Shown piece after piece: positions 3,720 through 39,117 of a stretch of 64,000 bases of DNA. This DNA is from Escherichia coli (GTDB lineage Bacteria; Pseudomonadota; Gammaproteobacteria; Enterobacterales; Enterobacteriaceae). Within the stretch, counting starts at the first letter, position 1. Every line of letters begins with the position of its first letter. The DNA is taken from NCBI RefSeq assembly GCF_044324875.1, contig NZ_CP172185.1. One strand, 5' to 3'. The position numbers and the translations under genes were made by a program. The notes under the pieces are model-generated. The model was not told the DNA's origin, did not search any database, and saw only the letters and a program-made list of their open reading frames with translations.

Positions 3720-3953
3720 GGTGTTTTATCCCTCATCGTCATCGCTCTGCCCCTAATCAGCGCAGAGTGCAGGGTAACCTGGCTCGTGGAATTTTTGCAG
3801 CCAGACATCTTTACCCCCGGGCGTGTTGAACAAAGTGTCCGCCAGATCCACTGAACGGCGGATTCATCAATGCTAACACGCCCTTCTTTTCCGGTTGAAG
3901 GCGAAAAAACCGGACCATTACCCCGACACAAAACAGAACAACGGAGAACAACT

Positions 3954-4508: not shown

Positions 4509-4828
4509 GTAACCACTATGCACACACAAAAAAACCGCTTGCCATGCCGCAATCAGTCAGGTTACATTTCCGCTGCACCTCATAAAACGGGTGCCGGGAT
4601 TGCAACCCCCGCTGACAACTACAGCGCACAACCGCGCCAGCGGTTTTTTTGTGCGTACCGTATCGCCACGTCTTTTTCGCGCCAGAATTATGGCGGGGCG
4701 TATGGGGCCGACTTCGGTCGGGCCGGTTTCTGTAGTTGCCGGTGGTTGCAACCCTGTACGTCTCGCCACCCAGAATTGCAACCTCTGGATGGTGAGTTTT
4801 CAAAACTTGCAACTACAGAGGCCACACC

Positions 4829-5540: not shown

Positions 5541-8051
5541 ATGAGCCATCACCACACGCACCTGGCGTACCCGTGGAACGCCCCGCTGCCGGTTATTGAT
5601 CCTGAGACATTCGGCAGAGCATTACCGCAGAAGCCAACCGCATTACAACGGGCAATCCGTGACTACCTCACCGAAGACATTCGCACTGAGGCCCGGCTGG
5701 ATGAAGAAACCGTGGCCTTCCTGACAACCACGGACAAAGGTAAGCAAATTAATTCACACCTTCACCGGGACGAAGAGCGGCAGATAAGGCTGGATAAGCT
5801 GGCACGACACAGACGCGAAAATCCGCCAACGGCGGTATCGGAGGCGATAGCCGAACTTCGCACCCTGCCCTCGTTTCTTGCCAGTGTGTTGATCCGTGAT
5901 CTGGCACGACTGAACCGGAAACAGCAAAGTGCCCGCAGTGAAGGTGTAAAAAACAACAGCGCATACGTGGCCGATAATTTCGTTCGCCGTGGACTGCGTG
6001 CGCGCCTGAAACGTATTGAAAGGGTTAACGACCGCTTTGCAACGCCGGCATTCAAAACCACCGTCGTGCGCCATCGCCTTGAAGAACTGCTCACACTGCC
6101 GCAACTCACCCGTGACGAAATCCAGCGCATCGCCACACTGACAGCCCAGGCATTCGCCGCAGAATTTGAACGCATATGTGATGAAGTTCTTGAACGGACA
6201 GGCAAGGATAATGACAGCCCGGTTATCTGGCTGCTGGCCTACCAGAAGGTGGCACGCACAGCCTTAATTCTGGGCATGGTCCCGCCATACTGGCCGGAAC
6301 TCGAAATCAGGCACAACCGACGCACACCGCCGGACCCTGAACGGGTTCCGGGTGCGGTACTGCGCATCACCTGCGCGACCTGGTGGAACAACCAGTTACG
6401 CCACGTCGCCGATCTCTGGCGGGAGGAGTTACTGCGCGCCGCCGGCAGAGTGTCACGTAAACAATCCCCCTATATCAGCCATGAGTCACTACTGGAGTTC
6501 CGCGAGAAGCGCCAGCGCACCTGTGACTTTCTCAAAAGCTGGGATATTGAAAACGAAGACGGCGAGCGCCTGAGTCTGGAGGACGTGTACTGGGCTGGCC
6601 TGGGTAATCCACGCAACCGCCGCAATGAAATGATGGTCTGCGTCAGAGGGATGGAGATGGTGGCCGAATTACGGGCTGACGTCGCATTCTTCATCACAGT
6701 AACCACCCCTTCCCGCTTTCACAGCGTGAACGAGAACGGCAGCCTGAACCCGAAATACAACGGTGCCACAGTACGAGATGCCAGTGATTATCTGGTTTAC
6801 GACTTCTTCGCAGCCGTAAGAAAAAAAATAAAAAAAGAGGGGCTGGGCTGGTACGGCGTGCGAACCGCTGAGCCACACCATGACGGCACGCCACACTGGC
6901 ATATGCTGGTATTCACTTCCCCGGAGAACGCAGAGCGCATCATCGAAATTATGCGCGAAGCAGCAATTAAATCAGATCGCCACGAACTGGGGGACGATAT
7001 TTCACCGCGCTTTAAATGCGAGAAGATAGACCCGGAAAAAGGCACACCGGCAAGCTATATCGCAACCTATATCGGTAAGAACCTGGACGCCAGCGCTTTC
7101 CACAACAATGATCCGAAAACCGGAAAACCTTACGTTGATGAGGAATCCGGGAAAACCATGGCGGAAACCGTGGAGAACGCCATTGCCTGGGCAAGCCTTC
7201 ACCGCATCCGTCAGTTCCAGTTTTTCGGCATTCCGCCCCGCCAGGTATGGCGTGAACTCCGCCGCCTTGCAAGCCAGATGGAGCGCAACCCGGCATCACC
7301 GAAGCACCTCGATCATGACGATATTGACGCCATTATGGCTGCCGCAGATGTGGGATGTTTTGCCACCTACATCATGAAACAGGGTGGTGTGCTCATTCCG
7401 CGCAACCAGTATCTGGTCCGCACCGCATACGAAACCGCAGACGAAGCCAACGACTACGGTGAATTCCCTCAACGTATCTACGGAATCTGCGCCCCGTCGC
7501 TCGGAGAGCGGTACACCATATGCACCCATCCGGACGAGTGGAAACTGGTTAAAAAAGAAACAATACCAGACAACCGCACGGGCGAGGGTTTTGACCTTCA
7601 GGGCGACCCCGTCGCCCCTTGGACTCGTGGCAATAACTGTCCCCGGGATGAAAAAACAGACAATCACGGACCAGAAAACAGGCAGGACCCCGGACGACTG
7701 ACGCTTCCCGAAGAGAACCTGGAAAGCTGGCTGAATACGTTAAGCAGGGGCGATCGGAGAAAACTGCGTAATCAGATTAAAAATCAGCCGTCGGGCGCAA
7801 AAACCGGACAAAACGACACCACACCGGCATCTGACACCCCTGTAAGGGTGGGGATTGTCGTGCCTGCGGATACCGCGACGGACACGCAAATCGCCCGCGA
7901 ACTTGATGCGCTGGGTGTGCAGTTGCCTGACGCGGCCATCATCTCCGTGCGTAACGGTGCCCGTGTGCGTCTGGATAACGGGGGAACAGCGTACTGGGAT
8001 GAGTCAGCCCGTCACATCATCACAGAGCAGCCAGTGGAGGCGGGAGCATGA
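5541..8051 (+). CDS. A: P2 gpA-like rolling-circle replication initiator (HUH endonuclease)
   Basis: 836 aa; HxH motif context TPHWHMLVF; position and size match the P2 A family. Confidence 0.85.
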   Translation: MSHHHTHLAYPWNAPLPVIDPETFGRALPQKPTALQRAIRDYLTEDIRTEARLDEETVAFLTTTDKGKQINSHLHRDEERQIRLDKLARHRRENPPTAVSEAIAELRTLPSFLASVLIRDLARLNRKQQSARSEGVKNNSAYVADNFVRRGLRARLKRIERVNDRFATPAFKTTVVRHRLEELLTLPQLTRDEIQRIATLTAQAFAAEFERICDEVLERTGKDNDSPVIWLLAYQKVARTALILGMVPPYWPELEIRHNRRTPPDPERVPGAVLRITCATWWNNQLRHVADLWREELLRAAGRVSRKQSPYISHESLLEFREKRQRTCDFLKSWDIENEDGERLSLEDVYWAGLGNPRNRRNEMMVCVRGMEMVAELRADVAFFITVTTPSRFHSVNENGSLNPKYNGATVRDASDYLVYDFFAAVRKKIKKEGLGWYGVRTAEPHHDGTPHWHMLVFTSPENAERIIEIMREAAIKSDRHELGDDISPRFKCEKIDPEKGTPASYIATYIGKNLDASAFHNNDPKTGKPYVDEESGKTMAETVENAIAWASLHRIRQFQFFGIPPRQVWRELRRLASQMERNPASPKHLDHDDIDAIMAAADVGCFATYIMKQGGVLIPRNQYLVRTAYETADEANDYGEFPQRIYGICAPSLGERYTICTHPDEWKLVKKETIPDNRTGEGFDLQGDPVAPWTRGNNCPRDEKTDNHGPENRQDPGRLTLPEENLESWLNTLSRGDRRKLRNQIKNQPSGAKTGQNDTTPASDTPVRVGIVVPADTATDTQIARELDALGVQLPDAAIISVRNGARVRLDNGGTAYWDESARHIITEQPVEAGA

Positions 8052-12285: not shown

Positions 12286-12741
12286 AATGCACAATAGTGC
12301 ACAAATTTGCACAATTTTTTTGAACGACTTTTTGCCCTTCCGGCCCGTGTGGCGTCTGGATCCGTCGGGGATCCGTGCGTGCACGAAAAAAGGCCTTTTT
12401 CTGCGCGCAGGTGACGGGGGAACAGCCCGCGTTTCAGGGGGTAAATAGCATTCCCTGAACGATGTTGCAGTGACACAACAGAATGGCTGTATTTCTCACG
12501 CTGAGCGTGAAAAAGACGTAAGGGCTTTTGATTTGATGGGGTGAAAGATAAGGCCGTCAAAATCGCACTGAGGCAGCGAGAATATGTCGTCAGAGTTGCG
12601 GGGTTGCGTAAGCATCCGCCCGGCGATGATGGCTACAGGGCTGGAGATGTTGTGAAATTATCTGAAGGAATAACCAGCTTGCAGGAGAACCCGGGCAAAG
12701 TCAGAATAGCGGCAGGCATCAACTCAAAAGAGGATAATGTC

Positions 12742-24738: not shown

Positions 24739-26973
24739 ATGAGCACGAGAAAATTCAGAACCCTTATCACCGACATCGGGCTGGCAAAGCTGGCCGCAAC
24801 AACGGCGCCTGGCGGTAGACCTGTACGCCTTACGCACATGGCTGTAGGGGACGGCAATGGAGAGCTTCGTCAGCCGCAGAAAAACCAGACATCGCTTTAC
24901 AATGAGGTTTGGCGCCAGTCTGTCAACCGCGTCTTCACCGACCCGGAGAACCCGAACCGCCTCATCGCCGAACTGGTCATTCCTCCTGAAACCGGCGGAT
25001 TCTGGGTGCGTGAAATTGGTGTGTTTGATGATACAGGTACAATGATTGCAGTAGGAAATACCGCTGAAAGTTACAAGCCCACCAGAGAGGAAGGTTCAGG
25101 GCGGGCGCAGATATTCCGTGCAGTAATCACCGTCACCTCCGACGCCGTGGTGGAACTGGTCATGGACACAACAACAATTCTGCCGACCACGGACTACATT
25201 GATGAGAAAATGGCGGAACACGCACGTTCCCGTAACCACCCTGACGCGACACTGACAGAAAAAGGATTCACCCAACTGAGCAGCGCCACAAACAGCACCT
25301 CTGAAACACTGGCCGCCACACCGAAGGCCGTCAAGGCTGCATATGACCTTGCAGCCGGTAAAGCACCCGCCAGCCACACCCACCCGTGGAATCAGATAAC
25401 TGGTGTGCCATCAGCCTCGCTGACGGCAAAAGGCACCGTACAGCTGAGCAGTGCCACAAACAGTGAGTCAGAGACTGAGGCGGCCACCCCCAAAGCGGTT
25501 AAAGCCTTACACGATATGGTGACGAGCAAGTATACAGGACAGGATGCAACCACCGGACGCAAAGGCATCGTACAGCTGAGCAGCGCCACAAACAGCAATT
25601 CCGAAACACTGGCGGCCACACCGAAGGCAGTAAGTGATGCACTGAGCATGGCGTTCGTGAAGCCAACAACATCCCTGGGGGAAACAGACCTGAACACTCT
25701 GGGGCGTAAGGAAGACGCGGGAGATTATTACCAGCAGAGTGACTCAGGTGCGAGAACAGACAGAAACTATCCTGTAGAGAAGGCAGGAGAGTTACGCATC
25801 CGTGTTGGTGCATGGGGATTCTGCCAGCATGAATACACGAGCTGGGATCCGCCACGAAAATTTATCAGGACAGTTACCGGAAACTTTAACGGTAACGGCC
25901 CATGGTCAGAGTGGGTGGAGGTGACAAACACAGATGCAACAACTGGACGCAAAGGCATCGTACAGCTGAGCAGCGATACAAACAGCAATTCCGAAACGCT
26001 GGCGGCCACACCAAGAGCCGTCAAGGCTGCATATGACCTTGCAGCCGGTAAAGCACCCGCCAGCCACACCCACCCGTGGAATCAGATAACAGGTGTGCCA
26101 TCAGCCTCGCTGACGGCAAAAGGCACCGTACAGCTGAGCAGTGCCACAAACAGTGAGTCAGAGACTGAGGCCGCCACCCCCAAAGCGGTTAAAGCCTTAC
26201 ACGATATGCTGACGAGCAAGTATACAGGACAGGATGCAACCACCGGACGCAAAGGCATCGTACAGCTAAGCAGCGCCACAAACAGCAATTCCGAAACGCT
26301 GGCGGCCACACCAAAAGCTGTTAAAGCTGCGTATGACCTTGCCAACAGCAAAGCCTCGGCAGCCCACACTCATCGCTGGGCTCAGATCACAGACGCCCCT
26401 GTTTTTTCGTCTGTTGCCCGCGTCATCATGGGTAAACAAAGCATAAAAGATATTCTTGATTACTTTGGTTTAGGAGAAGGCTCGACGCTGCCAGTTGGCG
26501 TACCCGTTCCGTGGCCTTCGTCAAGACCACCTGAGGGGTGGTTACAGTGCAACGGTGCCGCATTCACGCGTACAAAATACCCAAAACTGGCGGTGGCCTA
26601 CCCTGACCTCAGGCTACCAGATTTGCGCGGGGAATTTATTCGTGGATGGGATGACCTGCGAATGATTGACAGGGGACGCTTATTGTTATCCACACAGGAA
26701 GCAACATATATTTGTACCGCCATACAGGCGTACCACGGCGTAGCGGGAGGTGCAGATATTCAGGCAGGGATTTCATTTGCATCACATGATAACGACATCA
26801 TAAACATAACCCCTGATCAACCCAGAACCGGTAACGGCATCCTGTACGGCACAAAACCAGTTGACAGATGGGCAATAGCCAGAGCCGGTAAGCTGGTGAG
26901 TAATGAAAAAGACAGATGGATAGCGATCAGACCGCGCAATATCGCTTTTAATTATATTGTGAGGGCAGTTTAA
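24739..26973 (+). CDS. H: Tail fibre protein, P2 gpH-like, with internal repeats
   Basis: 744 aa; conserved N-terminal domain followed by repeated LSSATNS-SET(L/E)AATPKAVKA motifs. Confidence 0.85.
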   Translation: MSTRKFRTLITDIGLAKLAATTAPGGRPVRLTHMAVGDGNGELRQPQKNQTSLYNEVWRQSVNRVFTDPENPNRLIAELVIPPETGGFWVREIGVFDDTGTMIAVGNTAESYKPTREEGSGRAQIFRAVITVTSDAVVELVMDTTTILPTTDYIDEKMAEHARSRNHPDATLTEKGFTQLSSATNSTSETLAATPKAVKAAYDLAAGKAPASHTHPWNQITGVPSASLTAKGTVQLSSATNSESETEAATPKAVKALHDMVTSKYTGQDATTGRKGIVQLSSATNSNSETLAATPKAVSDALSMAFVKPTTSLGETDLNTLGRKEDAGDYYQQSDSGARTDRNYPVEKAGELRIRVGAWGFCQHEYTSWDPPRKFIRTVTGNFNGNGPWSEWVEVTNTDATTGRKGIVQLSSDTNSNSETLAATPRAVKAAYDLAAGKAPASHTHPWNQITGVPSASLTAKGTVQLSSATNSESETEAATPKAVKALHDMLTSKYTGQDATTGRKGIVQLSSATNSNSETLAATPKAVKAAYDLANSKASAAHTHRWAQITDAPVFSSVARVIMGKQSIKDILDYFGLGEGSTLPVGVPVPWPSSRPPEGWLQCNGAAFTRTKYPKLAVAYPDLRLPDLRGEFIRGWDDLRMIDRGRLLLSTQEATYICTAIQAYHGVAGGADIQAGISFASHDNDIINITPDQPRTGNGILYGTKPVDRWAIARAGKLVSNEKDRWIAIRPRNIAFNYIVRAV
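25331..26315 (+). repeat. Near-identical ~295-bp direct repeats inside the tail-fibre gene
   Basis: 25331-25625 and 26021-26315 are almost identical at nucleotide level (offset 690 bp); shorter repeat at 25947-26015. Confidence 0.8.
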
Positions 26974-33831: not shown

Positions 33832-33992
33832 ATGTTTCACCCTTGTCTGGCTGGTTGATTTTGCGTAATCATTACCCACACACGCGGTAATCTCACCCCT
33901 TTGATGTTGTCTCCTGACAGCGACAACAAAACAGCCATTCAACGCCGCTGCGGTGCATGAAACCATTACAGAACGCACCAGGAGAGAACACC

Positions 33993-35127: not shown

Positions 35128-35379
35128 ATGTTCCGTTGTCCCCTATGCGGTGCATCCGCACGTATCCGCACCAGTCGCAATGAAAATGATTCAGGCACAG
35201 TTCGCCTGAAGTACTACCAGTGCAATAACCTCGAATGCGGGATCGGCTTTACCACACTGGAGGGTTTTAACAAATTCACATCAAAACGCGCCCCGTCGCC
35301 GCAGGGTACAGAGCGGATACCGTGGGAAGATTTTCCGGGATCTCACAGGGGGAATGCTCAGATGAATCTTGATATTTAA
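35128..35379 (+). CDS. ogr: Ogr/Delta-family zinc-finger late-gene activator
   Basis: MFRCPLCGASARIRTSR...YYQCNNLECG resembles the recalled P2 Ogr MFHCPLC...HQCQNVNC. Confidence 0.8.
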   Translation: MFRCPLCGASARIRTSRNENDSGTVRLKYYQCNNLECGIGFTTLEGFNKFTSKRAPSPQGTERIPWEDFPGSHRGNAQMNLDI

Positions 35380-35521
35380 GAACAATAATCAGGTTGAGAG
35401 GACATCATAAGGCAAGTAGATTAACGGCAGATACTTTCCCGCAACCACGGGCAAGTATTTAATTATCCATGATGAAATATGACCTAAATTGTTTTTTGCC
35501 CGCCGGAAAGCGGGCATTTTT

Positions 35522-35737
35522 TTATTCTTTTGTGGTTATGGGGTCATCAGGAACCACGTGCAGATTATATTTTTGTTTTTTTGGCGTTCCTCCGGCAGCA
35601 ACGAGTTCATCAATAAGACACTGACACGCCTGAACATCCCGGGCATGTCTTAGTTTCACCTTTATTGATTTAACCTTATCCTCACCGGAGGAGAAATGCA
35701 GTTCAATCTCAATATCGTTTCTTCGGAACAATCTCAT
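35522..35737 (-). CDS. Small hypothetical protein (71 aa); the only intact copy of a thrice-repeated gene
   Basis: AGGGGGG RBS; decayed paralogues at ~36840-36905 and ~37500-37560; palindromic AT-rich upstream region. Confidence 0.4.
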   Translation of the reverse strand: MRLFRRNDIEIELHFSSGEDKVKSIKVKLRHARDVQACQCLIDELVAAGGTPKKQKYNLHVVPDDPITTKE

Positions 35738-36094
35738 ACGCCCCCCTGAATATATCAGAAATGCTAGTATCGAAAAATGAGAAAACAGTTAGACAGGAGA
35801 AACATATTAACACAAATCATTTATACCTATAGATGAAATTATAATTTCATTCATGAATATGATAGATAACTATATTGTGAACAAAATGAAAAATGGCTAA
35901 ATTAAAAATGGGCATGGAGGAATGCCCGGTTATCAATATAATGTGACGTAGATCATTGTTTTGCCCGCCGGAGAGCGGGCATTTTTTTTGCGCCTGCCAT
36001 CGAGGCGCCTTCCCTGGCGCACACAAAGCAGCCCTGATTTTCCATGAAAACTTCAGGGTTGAGCTGCGGGCACAAAGTGAGTAGATTAGCTACG

Positions 36095-36189
36095 GGTACC
36101 TCCCCCTGACAACAGGAAGGGTGTCCATTATCCATGATATACAAACGAAAAGTCTTGTTTTTTGCCCGCCGAAGCGCGGGCATTTTTTT
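36095..36189 (+). ncRNA. Candidate sRNA unit S1 (promoter plus intrinsic terminator)
   Basis: -35 TTGAGC (36059-36064), 17-bp spacer, -10 TAGATT (36082-36087), then ~95 nt with a CCTTCC/GGAAGG stem-loop ending in the hairpin and T-run. Confidence 0.35.
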
Positions 36190-36315
36190 ATGCATCAGAC
36201 AAGATACAGCCCACCCCAACTGACACCTGAAATATTGCCGCAACAAAAAGAAACAGTTAAATTACGCGCGGGTGCCTTTCGGCTGATGGCCGGAGGGAAA
36301 ACCTGAAGGCCGGAT

Positions 36316-36549
36316 GTGGAAAGGCCCCGGAAAACATTTCTGTTTAACCGAGGCCCTAACCGCATTACCTTGACAAGTGAAAGGTTAGCGCCTCTCCGGA
36401 AAAGGAGCAAGTGCTATGTCGCAAAAATCGCTTACGGCCATCACGTTCTGCGTGACGGCAATCCTCATCATCTGGATATTGCACGGTTCGCTGTGCGAAA
36501 TACGGATGAGCTTCTGGGGAGCGGAGTTTGCGGCGTTCTTACAATGTAA
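36316..36549 (+). CDS. mok-like overlapping reading frame of the hok-like locus
   Basis: 77-aa ORF starting ~100 nt upstream of and overlapping the hok-like ORF in another frame. Confidence 0.4.
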   Translation: MERPRKTFLFNRGPNRITLTSERLAPLRKRSKCYVAKIAYGHHVLRDGNPHHLDIARFAVRNTDELLGSGVCGVLTM

Positions 36550-36556
36550 GAAGTAA
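36416..36556 (+). CDS. Hok/Gef-family type I toxin (46 aa)
   Basis: MSQKSLTAITFCVTAILIIWILHGSLCEIRMSFWGAEFAAFLQCKK: TM helix then SLCEIR and E(V/F)AAF motifs as in plasmid R1 Hok; AAGGAG RBS. Confidence 0.7.
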   Translation: MSQKSLTAITFCVTAILIIWILHGSLCEIRMSFWGAEFAAFLQCKK

Positions 36557-36645
36557 GGAAACCGCGACGGGGGAGCAATCCCCCGTCAATCGGTTGCCAG
36601 GGTAAGGTCGATAAGGCACCCTATCTCACAGACATGAACAACAAA

Positions 36646-36676
36646 CCCGCAGCATAAAAACTGCGGGTTTTCTTTT
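36646..36676 (+). terminator. Intrinsic terminator of the hok-like transcript
   Basis: Hairpin CCCGCAG-CATAAAAA-CTGCGGG followed by TTTTCTTTTT. Confidence 0.6.
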
Positions 36677-37265
36677 TGGTGTCCTCACCGACTTGAAACA
36701 GTGATCAGACTATAAGACAAAGCCCGCAATGTTGCGGGCTTACTCTACCTCTCGAAAATGTGGTCACTGCGTGGACATACGCTGATACAAATCCTTTATA
36801 TCAATAAATTAAATCTTTGTTTTTTTCATCAACAATGATTTAACCTTATCCTCACCGGAGGAGAAATGCAGTTCAATCTCAATATCGTTTCTGTGGAACA
36901 GCCTCATAAGACAACCTCCTGAATTCATCAGAAACACAGTCAACTGAAAACCAGAAAGCAGACAAACAGTGGACACACATTAATACAAATCATTTATACC
37001 TATAGATGAAATTGCAGTTTCATCTATAACATGACAGGTAACAATATTGTGAAAAAACTCAAAACTCGTTAGATTAAAGACGGACAGAGCAATGCTACTT
37101 TATCAATAACATGTAACCTGTACTTCCTTATTTTGCCCGCCGAAGCACGGGCATTTTTTTTGCGCCTGCCATCGAGGCGCCTTCCCTGGCGCACACAAAG
37201 CAGCCCTGATTTTCCATGAAAACTTCAGGGTTGAGCCAAAAGCACAAAGACAGTAGATTAACCAC

Positions 37266-37359
37266 GGGTGCCTTCCACCTGACAACAGGAAGGGTGTCCA
37301 GTATCAATGACAGACAACTCACATTGCTGTTTTGCCCGCCGGAAAGCGGGCATTTTTTT
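37266..37359 (+). ncRNA. Candidate sRNA unit S2
   Basis: Same -35/17 bp/-10 (TTGAGC...TAGATT at 37231/37254) and terminator architecture as S1. Confidence 0.3.
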
Positions 37360-37914
37360 ATTCTTTTGTGGTTATTGGGTCATCAGGAACAACATGCAGA
37401 TTATGCTTTGATTTTTTTGGTGTTATTACAGCAGCAACGAGTTTATTAATAAGACACTGACATGCCTGAACATCCCTGACATATCATAATTTCACTTTAT
37501 TTTTTTAGCTTGTCCTTTCTGGAGCAGAAATATCTCAACATCGTTTCTGTGGAACAACCTCATTTGCCCCTGAATGTATCATAAATATCAGCATCGGAAA
37601 ACCAACAGCAATACAGAAGAAACATGTTAATGCAAATCACTTATACCTATAGATGAAATTACAGTTTTGTTCATAAATATGATAAGTAACTATATTGTGA
37701 ATAAAATGAAAACTAGCTAAATTAAACGTGGGCATGGTGGAATGCCTCGTAATCAATAATACATGATCCGTACTTCCTTGTTTTGCCCGCCGGAAAGCGG
37801 GCATTTTTTTGGCGGTTACCATCGCCTCACCTTCCTGGTTCACATGAAGCAACCCTGATTTTCCATGAAAACTTCAGGGTTGAGACAAAAGCACAAAGAC
37901 AGTAGATTAACCAC

Positions 37915-38007
37915 GGGTACCTTCCACCTGACAACAGGAAGGCTGTCCAGTATCAATGACAGACAACTCACATTGCTGTTTTGCCCGCCGGAAAGCGGGC
38001 TTTTTTT
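37915..38007 (+). ncRNA. Candidate sRNA unit S3
   Basis: -35 TTGAGA 37879, -10 TAGATT 37902, terminator hairpin 37983-38000. Confidence 0.3.
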
Positions 38008-38112
38008 GGCAGTTATCATAGCCGCACCTTCCTGGCACATATGAAGCAACCCTGATTTTCCATGAAAACTTCAGGGTTGAGACAAAAGCACAAAAACAGT
38101 AGATTAACCACG

Positions 38113-38208
38113 GGTGCCTGCCACCTGACAACAGGAAGGGGTGTCCATTATCCATGATATACAAACGAAAAGTCTTGTCTTTTGCCCGCCAAAGCGCGGG
38201 CATTTTTT
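38113..38208 (+). ncRNA. Candidate sRNA unit S4
   Basis: -35 TTGAGA 38077, -10 TAGATT 38100, terminator hairpin 38184-38201. Confidence 0.3.
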
Positions 38209-38420
38209 TATGCATCAGACAAGATACAGCCCACCCCAACTGACACCTGAAATATTGCCGCAACAAAAAGAAACGGGTGCCTTTCGGCTGATGGCCGGAG
38301 GGAAAACCTGAAGGCCGGATGTGGAAAGGCCCCGGAAAACATCTGTGTTTAACCGAGGCCTGACCCTTCCTACCGTGACAAGTGGAAGGTTAGCGCCTCT
38401 TTGTAAAAGGAGCAAGCGCT

Positions 38421-38561
38421 ATACCGCAAAAAACGATTATTGTTGGCATTTTATGCCTGACAATAACCCTGGTCATCTGGATGGTCCACGATTCGTTATG
38501 TGAATTCAGCTTTGATATCTGGGGAGCGCGTTTTGCGGCGTTCTTGCAGTGTAAACCGTAA
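38421..38561 (+). pseudogene. Degenerate second hok-like copy
   Basis: Start codon ATG replaced by ATA, LCEIR changed to LCEFSF; the matching mok-like frame (38321-38503) is truncated. Confidence 0.6.
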
Positions 38562-38711
38562 GAAACCGCAGCGGGGGAGAAATTCCCCGCTATCCGGTTG
38601 TTGGGGTGGGCCGATATGGCGCCCTTTCCCTGTAGAGACAAAACAAAAAACCAGATTTGCCCGCCATTGAGAGGGCTTTTTTGTCACCCTCACCAGTGAG
38701 GGCATCATCAT

Positions 38712-38939
38712 TCAGAGGCGCGTAAGCCACCCGGCGTTAACATCCTGCCTGTCAACCCTGGCCGCAGAGTCTGAACGGCAGGTACCGGAAGGAGTACCAA
38801 AAACATCCCTGACAAGTTCCGCCACCTTCCCGATATCATCAGGTGTCACATTCCTCACCTCGGCCGTGATCCGTGGCGTACCATCATCGTTAACAAGAGT
38901 GGCTTTAAAGCTGGTGCGAAGGGAAAACAACATCAACAT
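38712..38939 (-). CDS. Hypothetical small protein (75 aa)
   Basis: ORF only; between the repeat array and serS. Confidence 0.25.
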   Translation of the reverse strand: MLMLFSLRTSFKATLVNDDGTPRITAEVRNVTPDDIGKVAELVRDVFGTPSGTCRSDSAARVDRQDVNAGWLTRL

Positions 38940-39094
38940 CCCCTCCCTTTGGTTCGTTGCACTGACGGCACGACACCATCAGGAAAAAGAAAAGCCCACA
39001 ACGTCAGTATTGTGGACTTTTTTCTTCAAAGATGGACATTATCTGGACACATGAAAATAAAATCCATTTATTTTCATATAGTTAAGTACCATGC

Positions 39095-39117
39095 AAAAGC
39101 GCCCGCAGGCGCTTTTT
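39095..39117. terminator. Intrinsic terminator downstream of serS
   Basis: AAAAGCGCCCGCAGGCGCTTTTT hairpin, symmetric A/T flanks. Confidence 0.6.

Follow-up and report, generated by a model that had tools for sequence, protein, structure and literature searches.

Small RNA (sRNA) genes that stand side by side as paralogues, keeping a conserved scaffold while their pairing regions differ in part, are represented by OmrA/B, PrrF1/2, Qrr1-5 and AgrA/B, which belong to core genomes and have known regulators and targets. The prophage Hfq sRNAs of pathogenic E. coli, PasA-D, AgvB/AsxR, Esr41 and DicF, are small genes with their own promoters and terminators, situated in accessory regions of lambdoid and Stx prophages, with copies far apart and in separate phages; they are often multi-copy, lineage-restricted and located near hok/sok, and combine conserved 3' modules with divergent 5' or seed parts (10.64898/2026.05.13.724894). 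Phage morons, which yield protein, also carry their own promoter and terminator and occupy the variable cargo spot after the last late-region gene, beside toxin-antitoxin cargo. Here we describe a 64,000-nt stretch of Escherichia coli DNA (contig NZ_CP172185.1 of RefSeq assembly GCF_044324875.1; hereafter the window), in which eight promoter-to-terminator units of two kinds, five S and three T, lie within the 3.7-kb cargo region of a P2-like prophage, all on the + strand. As judged from their sequence, the units are probably independent small RNA genes. They resemble the prophage sRNAs and the morons in the respects just named; they differ from the former in that eight genes are packed into 3.7 kb of a P2-like phage, from the tandem core-genome siblings in being phage-borne and in varying in a cassette-like, 2x2 manner, and from the morons in that their product is apparently RNA. 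Comparison of S and T with PasA-D, AgvB/AsxR, Esr41 and DicF gave no sequence or covariance-model match.

The eight units, with the RNA start placed ~7 nt after the -10 hexamer, are as follows.

35394-35523, + strand: S0 unit, promoter TTGAGA-17-TAGATT at 35394-35422, predicted RNA 35429-35523; a more divergent S copy, without upstream palindrome, whose start follows the ogr stop by 15 bp
35875-35989, + strand: T1 unit, promoter TTGTGA-17-TAAATT, predicted RNA 35910-35989, with a GGGCAU/AUGCCC 5' hairpin and the S-type terminator
36032-36189, + strand: S1 unit, palindrome 36032-36058, promoter 36059-36087, predicted RNA 36094-36189
37047-37161, + strand: T2 unit, promoter TTGTGA-17-TAGATT, predicted RNA 37082-37161; 5' hairpin degenerate, fold z-score -1.05
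37204-37359, + strand: S2 unit, palindrome 37204-37230, promoter 37231-37259, predicted RNA 37266-37359
37695-37810, + strand: T3 unit, promoter TTGTGA-17-TAAATT, predicted RNA 37730-37810
37853-38007, + strand: S3 unit, palindrome 37853-37879, promoter 37880-37908, predicted RNA 37915-38007
38050-38209, + strand: S4 unit, palindrome 38050-38076, promoter 38077-38105, predicted RNA 38112-38209

An initial annotation of the window had recognised, within 36059-38208, four copies of a sigma70-type promoter followed by terminator-ended transcripts of ~95 nt. These copies, with TTGAGC/TTGAGA, exactly 17 bp and TAGATT, were recovered by regular-expression search and reading at 36059, 37231, 37880 and 38077 (starts of the -35 hexamers), and the count was extended by a fifth S copy outside that span (S0, 35394) and by the three T units, which combine TTGTGA-17-TA(A/G)ATT with a body of ~80 nt and the terminator of the S units. 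Every S unit closes, as claimed, with (T)GCCCGCC..GCGGGC(A) and T7-8 at 93-98 nt from the predicted start. The arrangement typical of Hfq-type sRNAs, a terminator with a long U-tail after a U-rich tract, was present in 8/8 units, in the form of a UUUU tract before the GCCCGC hairpin and U7-8 after it; the same type of terminator (U-rich tract, GCCCGCC hairpin and U-tail) is found in RyhB of Intestinirhabdus. The region contains 17 terminator-like sites, compared with 4.6 +/- 2.0 in shuffles, and 8/17 belong to this family and lie on the + strand, the only strand on which the S/T terminator looks functional (no T-run on the minus strand). A scan of the units for tRNA and tmRNA returned none, and among the small open reading frames (ORFs) of the S and T units, on either strand, none was conserved or had a ribosome-binding site. 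T1 (35914-35946), T3 (37734-37766) and T4, a T unit of the related array L004 (~3878-3910), share a 10-codon frame with its AUG 4 nt from the predicted 5' end (peptides MEECPVINIM, MVECLVINNT and MEECLVISNT), which is probably untranslated, since it is without ribosome-binding site and lies inside the hairpin.

Sequence constraint on the promoters was assessed with six S variants, S0 to S4 of the window and S5 of sibling prophages. Variable columns amounted to 1/12 in the hexamers and to 15/23 in spacer and discriminator (Fisher p=0.0016); between S1 and S2, 0/39 sites of palindrome and hexamers differ, compared with 9/23 sites of spacer and discriminator (p=4e-5). The 17-bp spacing is retained in S0 though 8/17 of its spacer sites differ from S3. 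Upstream of the promoter, S1-S4 carry an identical 27-bp palindrome, CCCTGATTTTCCATGAAAACTTCAGGG, centred ~49 bp before the predicted start and found nowhere else in the window (4 found, 0.04 expected). Of the perfect 7-bp-stem palindrome in which the -35 was said to be embedded, the position at the -35 was confirmed, with an overlap of two bases, and the stem was revised: the outer arm measures 8 bp in S3 and S4 (AACCCTGA) and 6 bp in S1 and S2, and an inner TTTTC/GAAAA pair adds 5 bp. One S copy of a sibling prophage has a symmetric variant, TTTTTCCATGAAAAA, with degraded outer arms. We infer that the S1-S4 palindrome is a candidate site for a dimeric regulator, which would give it the operator role proposed for it initially. 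Assignment of the palindrome to Ogr, LexA or a phage operator was rejected; it is absent elsewhere in the prophage and does not fit TGT-N12-ACA, the dyad type seen at Ogr-dependent P2 late promoters, of which instances occur at 33908-33925, in the divergent intergenic region of the sheath gene and gpD, and at 12463-12480. A second palindrome, TAGATGAAA-N6-TTTCATCTA, lies between the divergent promoters of T units and of the neighbouring M gene or its copies (35828-35867, 36996-37028 and 37648-37680); it is unlike the S palindrome, has perfect 11-bp arms in copy 2, and is a candidate operator for M and T.

Folding of the six S variants yielded one common 5'-terminal two-tier hairpin, in which an outer stem (7-9 pairs) leads through an internal loop to an inner stem of 4 bp, capped by a CAAC-containing loop. 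Comparison of S0 with S1-S5 revealed three two-sided compensatory pairs, two of them in the outer stem (A-U/G-C and U-A/C-G) and one in the inner (C-G/U-A), and several further pairs are altered on one side via G-U, so that the covariation check suggested for the copies came out in favour of a maintained hairpin. RNAalifold recovers this hairpin despite a one-base misplacement of S0 by MAFFT, and S0 folds at -27.7 kcal/mol (z -3.4). The CCTTCC/GGAAGG stem attributed to all copies is perfect in S2 and S3 only, S1 having CCTCCC and S4 CCTGCC in its place, within the same two-tier fold. The stretch after the hairpin is unpaired in every predicted fold and opens with UAUC(C/A)AUGA in 5/6 variants and with UAUUAAUGA in S5; this conserved motif is followed by a variable cassette, a U-rich tract and the terminator.

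The S units form a mosaic. The middle of the RNA exists in two discrete versions, one shared by S1 and S4 and the other by S2 and S3 (62% identity between versions), and the upstream flank in two versions as well, with S1 = S2 and S3 close to S4. As S1-S4 thereby represent the four combinations of two flanks and two middles, recombination within the conserved core has shuffled the copies, and the initial picture of a conserved promoter spacing and terminator around a drifting interior was retained in its first half and replaced in its second by a 2x2 mosaic of two cassettes. In nine sibling prophages, selected for an identical Ogr protein, the block of S5 and a further S unit, S4b, is invariant over 386 nt before the terminator loop, while gpD, ~1 kb away, averages 2.35% difference.

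The window consists of E. coli chromosome, in which the P2-like prophage occupies the bases up to ~39095, with genes for tape measure, tail tube, sheath, gpD and ogr. Core-chromosome homology, present in 5425/5426 complete genomes, begins only at ~39095, 43 bp from the serS stop, and the annotated span is therefore placed within the 3.7-kb stretch from ogr to the prophage right end. Sequence comparison identifies the prophage as a P2-like element of the P88/Xuanwuvirus type, inserted downstream of serS; the closest sequenced phages are P88 and other members of Xuanwuvirus. Since the spot after ogr holds a hok/sok locus in P88 and hok plus a com/methyltransferase pair in Chuche, the stretch from ogr to the right end can be regarded as a variable cargo spot. 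The moron-like character of the cassettes follows from their place in this variable site between ogr and the att end, where relatives carry other cargo and siblings differ in content. The S and T units are interleaved with M, one intact hok/sok and one dead hok, and the neighbouring features are listed below.

35128-35379, + strand: ogr, late-gene activator and last backbone gene before the cargo (ORF; ogr/Delta-like zinc finger annotated in identical RefSeq loci)
35522-35737, - strand: M gene, 71 amino acids, WP_001236182.1 (phrog_14142), convergent with S0 and divergent from T1
36235-36680, + strand: hok/sok locus 1, promoter TTGCCG-17-TAAATT at 36235-36263, mRNA from ~36270, hok ORF 36416-36556 (Rfam sok 46 bits, below the gathering score; phrog_251)
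36745-36815, no strand assigned: internal copy of the right-end architecture, with terminator hairpin, TGGTCACTGCGTGGACA arm-type repeats and AAATCC.. (aligned with true right ends)
36809-36976, - strand: M', truncated copy of M (ORF and repeat comparison)
37492-37563, - strand: M'' remnant, a frame of 23 codons that converges on S2 just as M does on S0
38274-38682, + strand: hok locus 2, inactivated, with S-type terminator at 38659-38682 (82% to locus 1; Rfam sok 48 bits)
38712-38939, - strand: orf75, last phage ORF before the right end (found in sibling prophages at other sites)
39030-39095, no strand assigned: prophage right end, with tandem ATGGACA..CTGGACA arm-type repeats

M is a genuine small protein. 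Alignments with identities of 35-44% link it to a 57-aa protein of P4-like satellites and to the C-terminal half of proteins of 128-133 aa, one of them also in a P4-like element; no Pfam-type, PADLOC or NCBIfam family was matched by M, and neither M nor orf75 matched a toxin family in PADLOC or NCBIfam. The structure model of M is a low-confidence beta-hairpin plus helix (beta-beta-alpha), for which no structural match was obtained. The M stop codon lies inside the T-run of S0, this S-M junction recurs at S2/M'' with 88% identity, and each T unit is divergent from a copy of M.

The true right end, and one further place within the array, show arm-type repeats TGG(A/T)CA..GTGGACA with AAATCC..TTTAT after them, and the M-T intergenic regions at 35796-35839, 36969-37012 and 37616-37659 contain sequence related to them. 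The array may have been built by integrase-mediated or homologous recombination at arm-type repeat sites. In strain SCU-115 the array corresponds to that of the window minus a 1172-bp block, 36013-37185, which contains the 3' part of S1, hok1, the internal right-end copy, M' and T2; the internal right-end copy at 36745-36815 thus marks a block that is extra in the present strain.

Several observations concern the window beyond the array. Four 160-nt direct repeats lie in the late region at 25243-26392, with a spacing of 300/390 nt and identities of 66-100%. At 4575-4773 (+), matches to IsrK (60 bits) and C4 antisense RNA (80 bits) stand beside each other, both exceeding the Rfam gathering scores; the two form a P4/P1-type RNA immunity pair, apparently in the early region of the same prophage. 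An 85-nt tRNA with a long variable arm, read as tRNA-Ser(GGA), was found at 53809-53893 (+), followed by an RtT-like element at 53940-54074 and by a lone perfect type I-F CRISPR repeat at 54176-54203 (-), which we take to be the residual CRISPR locus near clpA/infA of E. coli strains without I-F cas genes.

The S units share part of their sequence with hok. Alignment to the hok mRNA promoter and 5' end extends over their -10 (TAGATT, compared with TAAATT), a discriminator of 6 nt and ~20 bases from the start of the transcript, which opens with GGGUGCCUU(U/C)C..CUGA (P88 hok: TAGATTACGCGCGGGTGCCTTTCGGCTGA; S2: TAGATTAACCACGGGTGCCTTCCACCTGA); for S2 and S4 against the hok loci of P88, Chuche and the window, z-scores of 5.3-7.1 were obtained, and 0/500 shuffles aligned as well. 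A weaker likeness, z 3.6-4.6, connects the T1 and T3 promoters with the local hok promoter. Beyond the first ~35 nt no homology between S and hok was found, except for the type of terminator shared with the dead hok copy, and S as an internally deleted hok was accordingly rejected for the 3' half. Because of the 5' homology, and because S0 sits where P88 carries hok, the S family probably derives from a hok leader stripped of its toxin part. The units are not hok/sok loci themselves: hok/sok (Pfam HOK_GEF) has a toxin ORF, a mok leader, an antisense Sok promoter and fbi, all four of which are absent from the S units, and RF01794 gave no match even at E<=10. Locus 1 is intact and ends in a bidirectional terminator at 36643-36670. 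Locus 2 is defective in that the segment with -10 and start has been deleted and the ATG changed to ATA; its antisense Sok promoter (TTGCTC-17-TAACCT, minus strand, ~38395-38425) looks intact, and its product may be an antitoxin RNA left as an orphan. Each hok locus has an S unit just before it, 36119-36254 being equal to 38139-38274 at 99%.

Among complete E. coli genomes, 30/5426 contain the S unit, without exception in this phage lineage and with no annotation on it. BLAST of the S unit against 50,697 phage records gave no match, nor did M plus T match any phage record; in plasmid records the match was confined to the hok part, and scans of GTDB representatives and Joint Genome Institute (JGI) metagenomes with the S promoter pattern produced nothing or random matches. 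The terminator pattern was discarded as a family tracer for being too generic. The lineage occupies six or more chromosomal sites (serS, copA, zapB/glpF, pheT/ihfA, hha and uvrC/pgsA), in the common form ogr-S0-M-T-S5-S4b followed by variable cargo, which is orf75, hicAB or a YafO-type toxin module. In sibling prophages L147-L156 (bases 6260-7500), the cargo after the S/T array is repeatedly toxin-antitoxin (hicAB and YafO-type; hok/sok in the window), and the stop codon of hicB abuts the S4b terminator. Array L004 lacks hok2', through an apparent deletion between two terminators.

Searches for known RNA families assigned S and T to no Rfam family, at either gathering or permissive thresholds, and literature searches by sequence strings and by topic returned no description of these RNAs. 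Repeats of the ToxI kind, which are short, arranged head-to-tail without promoters of their own and placed upstream of an endoribonuclease toxin gene in type III toxin-antitoxin systems, were rejected as a model, the present units measuring 115-200 bp and each having its own promoter and terminator. In the complementarity searches, a 15-nt match to a clpB fragment on an unrelated contig was judged a chance hit.

The interpretation as functional sRNAs, put forward in the initial annotation, is best supported, given the constrained promoter, the compensatory hairpin, the Hfq-type 3' end and the status of the units as a fixed part of the phage lineage. Several points weigh against it. The promoters match at only 8-9 of 12 positions, with S0, S3 and S4 listed at 9/12 by a generic promoter scan and S1 and S2 unlisted (8/12 by manual count), and the region as a whole shows no excess of promoter-like sites (9 compared with 6.6 +/- 3.0); the case for the promoters consequently rests on conservation and not on score. 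Fold z-scores are modest, ranging from -1.4 to -3.4. Since the copies form a recombination mosaic, the identity of their core could partly be due to gene conversion. In the nine siblings, the DNA of ogr is as invariant as the S5+S4b block and sequence diversity is small, so that the invariance of the block may reflect recent spread and is not proof of selection. Exact and energy-based searches found no target for S or T beyond chance in the window, its translation starts, M and hok mRNA, P4, P4-like satellites and M-like loci. In particular, the hok leader and the M gene, both named initially as candidate targets, showed complementarity to S no better than shuffled controls, and the tie to hok is due to descent, through a homologous promoter and 5' end.

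The same observations were weighed against other explanations. The hok homology of promoter and 5' end in S, the dead hok copy adjoining S4, the visible degeneration of M', M'' and T2, the difference in array composition between L004 and the window, produced by deletion from one terminator to another, and the possible recency of the invariant block would all be expected if the units were neutral relics, that is, decaying hok leftovers of promoter and leader fused to a terminator, multiplied by recombination at repeated terminators and cores and perhaps transcribed without function. We consider this unlikely, because hexamers, spacing, palindrome and hairpin pairing have been kept while the spacers diverged by ~50%, because S0, T, S5 and S4b are unchanged in prophages at at least five sites with different cargo, and because the hok homology ends after the first ~35 nt, bar the terminator. 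A cis-acting role, in which S controls the stability of convergent cargo mRNAs or insulates ogr and the late genes from antisense transcription, draws on the tail-to-tail arrangement of S0/M, S2/M'' and S4b/hicBA: as the M stop falls within the T-run of S0 and that hairpin is not followed by a T-run on the minus strand, M transcripts should run antisense through S0, and such read-through cargo mRNAs would be fully complementary to the S RNA. The recurrent S-M junction and the abutting hicB stop agree with this. It appears a rather improbable account nonetheless, for S1, S3 and S4 face no convergent gene in the window, S2 has been retained despite its broken M'', and the 5' hairpin, the alternative cassettes and the palindrome are left unexplained.

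We give little credence to the view that S RNAs are decoys or sponges, either anti-sRNAs like AgvB/AsxR or mimics of a core sRNA seed. It derives from CA-rich loops and from sub-threshold Rfam likeness of the 3' half of S2 to RyhB (RF00057; best 24.4 bits, gathering 55) and AgvB (RF02702; 23.2 bits, gathering 56), neither of which was accepted as a family assignment; S0, S1 and T1, without the shared motif, score alike, and units without the shared 11-mer still reach 20-21 bits for RyhB, so that most of each score (~20 bits) comes from the terminator, and pairing with GcvB R1 did not exceed that of shuffled S RNAs. The RyhB core has an 11-nt run, CUCACAUUGCU, in common with S2 and S3, and 10 nt in common with S5; by our own estimate, a stretch of 11 nt shared with one or another E. 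coli sRNA is not improbable. In the DNA this run reads CTCACATTGCT (37318-37328 in S2 and 37967-37977 in S3) and corresponds to RyhB positions 45-55; mimicry of RyhB is retained as a lead only. Very unlikely, in our assessment, is a modulation of the hok system, whereby the S 5' end GGGUGCCUU, which equals the hok tac element, would pair in trans with the 3' fbi (AAGGCACCC, ~36614-36622) and alter hok activation. The 5' ends of S2 and S4 are indeed identical to hok, an S unit immediately precedes both hok loci, and in sibling phages the array invariably has a toxin-antitoxin module as neighbouring cargo; on the other hand, an A at position 5 of S1, S3 and S5 breaks the fbi pairing and keeps the hairpin, from which the constraint appears to act on the hairpin, the S 5' end is sequestered in that predicted structure, complementarity does not go past 9 nt, and most sibling prophages with S units have no hok. 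Finally, the mosaic structure, the deletions at repeated terminators and the att-like segment inside the array would suit elements acting as DNA only, with core and palindrome as recombination or protein-binding sites and no genes at all. This can be given hardly any weight, in view of compensatory changes that preserve an RNA hairpin and of the strict one-strand promoter-to-terminator polarity of all eight units, a polarity that such elements would not lead one to expect.

For the units as sRNA genes we propose the following mode of action. Each S or T unit would be a self-contained 'RNA moron', in which a sigma70-type promoter gives rise to a non-coding RNA of ~95 nt (T ~80 nt) that ends at an intrinsic terminator, and the units would be expressed from the lysogen. 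The S RNA would comprise three parts: the 5'-terminal two-tier hairpin; a mostly single-stranded, A/U-rich middle with UAUC(C/A)AUGA and then one of two or three cassettes; and a 3' module of the type that Hfq binds, made up of U-rich tract, GC hairpin and U7-8 tail. The 3' module together with the unpaired conserved motif makes Hfq-type trans base-pairing the most likely mode, and since the motif holds the anti-start-codon CAU, pairing would probably take place at translation-start regions. The targets of the sibling sRNAs, acting in trans, would be mRNAs encoded by the host or by competing mobile elements, and the family would descend from a hok leader minus its toxin part. That the units are prophage-expressed trans base-pairing sRNAs of the Hfq type with exchangeable middle cassettes is, on the features assembled here, a possibility to which we assign slightly less than an even chance. 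A further-reaching version, which we regard as a long shot, pictures the array as recombination-shuffled, scaffolded, guide-like sRNAs with a fixed hok-derived 5' hairpin, a fixed Hfq-type 3' module and middle cassettes that can be exchanged, co-regulated through the palindromic operator, perhaps by M, and directed against competing phages, satellites or plasmid addiction systems, or serving host takeover; if true, such an array would be an RNA-only accessory system able to evolve at the level of cassettes.

The practical benefit will stay modest until a target has been identified. If expressed, the units would constitute an undescribed sRNA family with two subfamilies, densely clustered in a P2-like temperate phage, whereas most prophage sRNAs described to date come from lambdoid phages, and they would offer a clean natural case in which the leader of a type I toxin mRNA gave rise to sRNA genes that then diversified by cassette exchange. 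As the phage lineage is frequent among E. coli associated with poultry and in some from humans, these RNAs could affect host physiology or phage competition.

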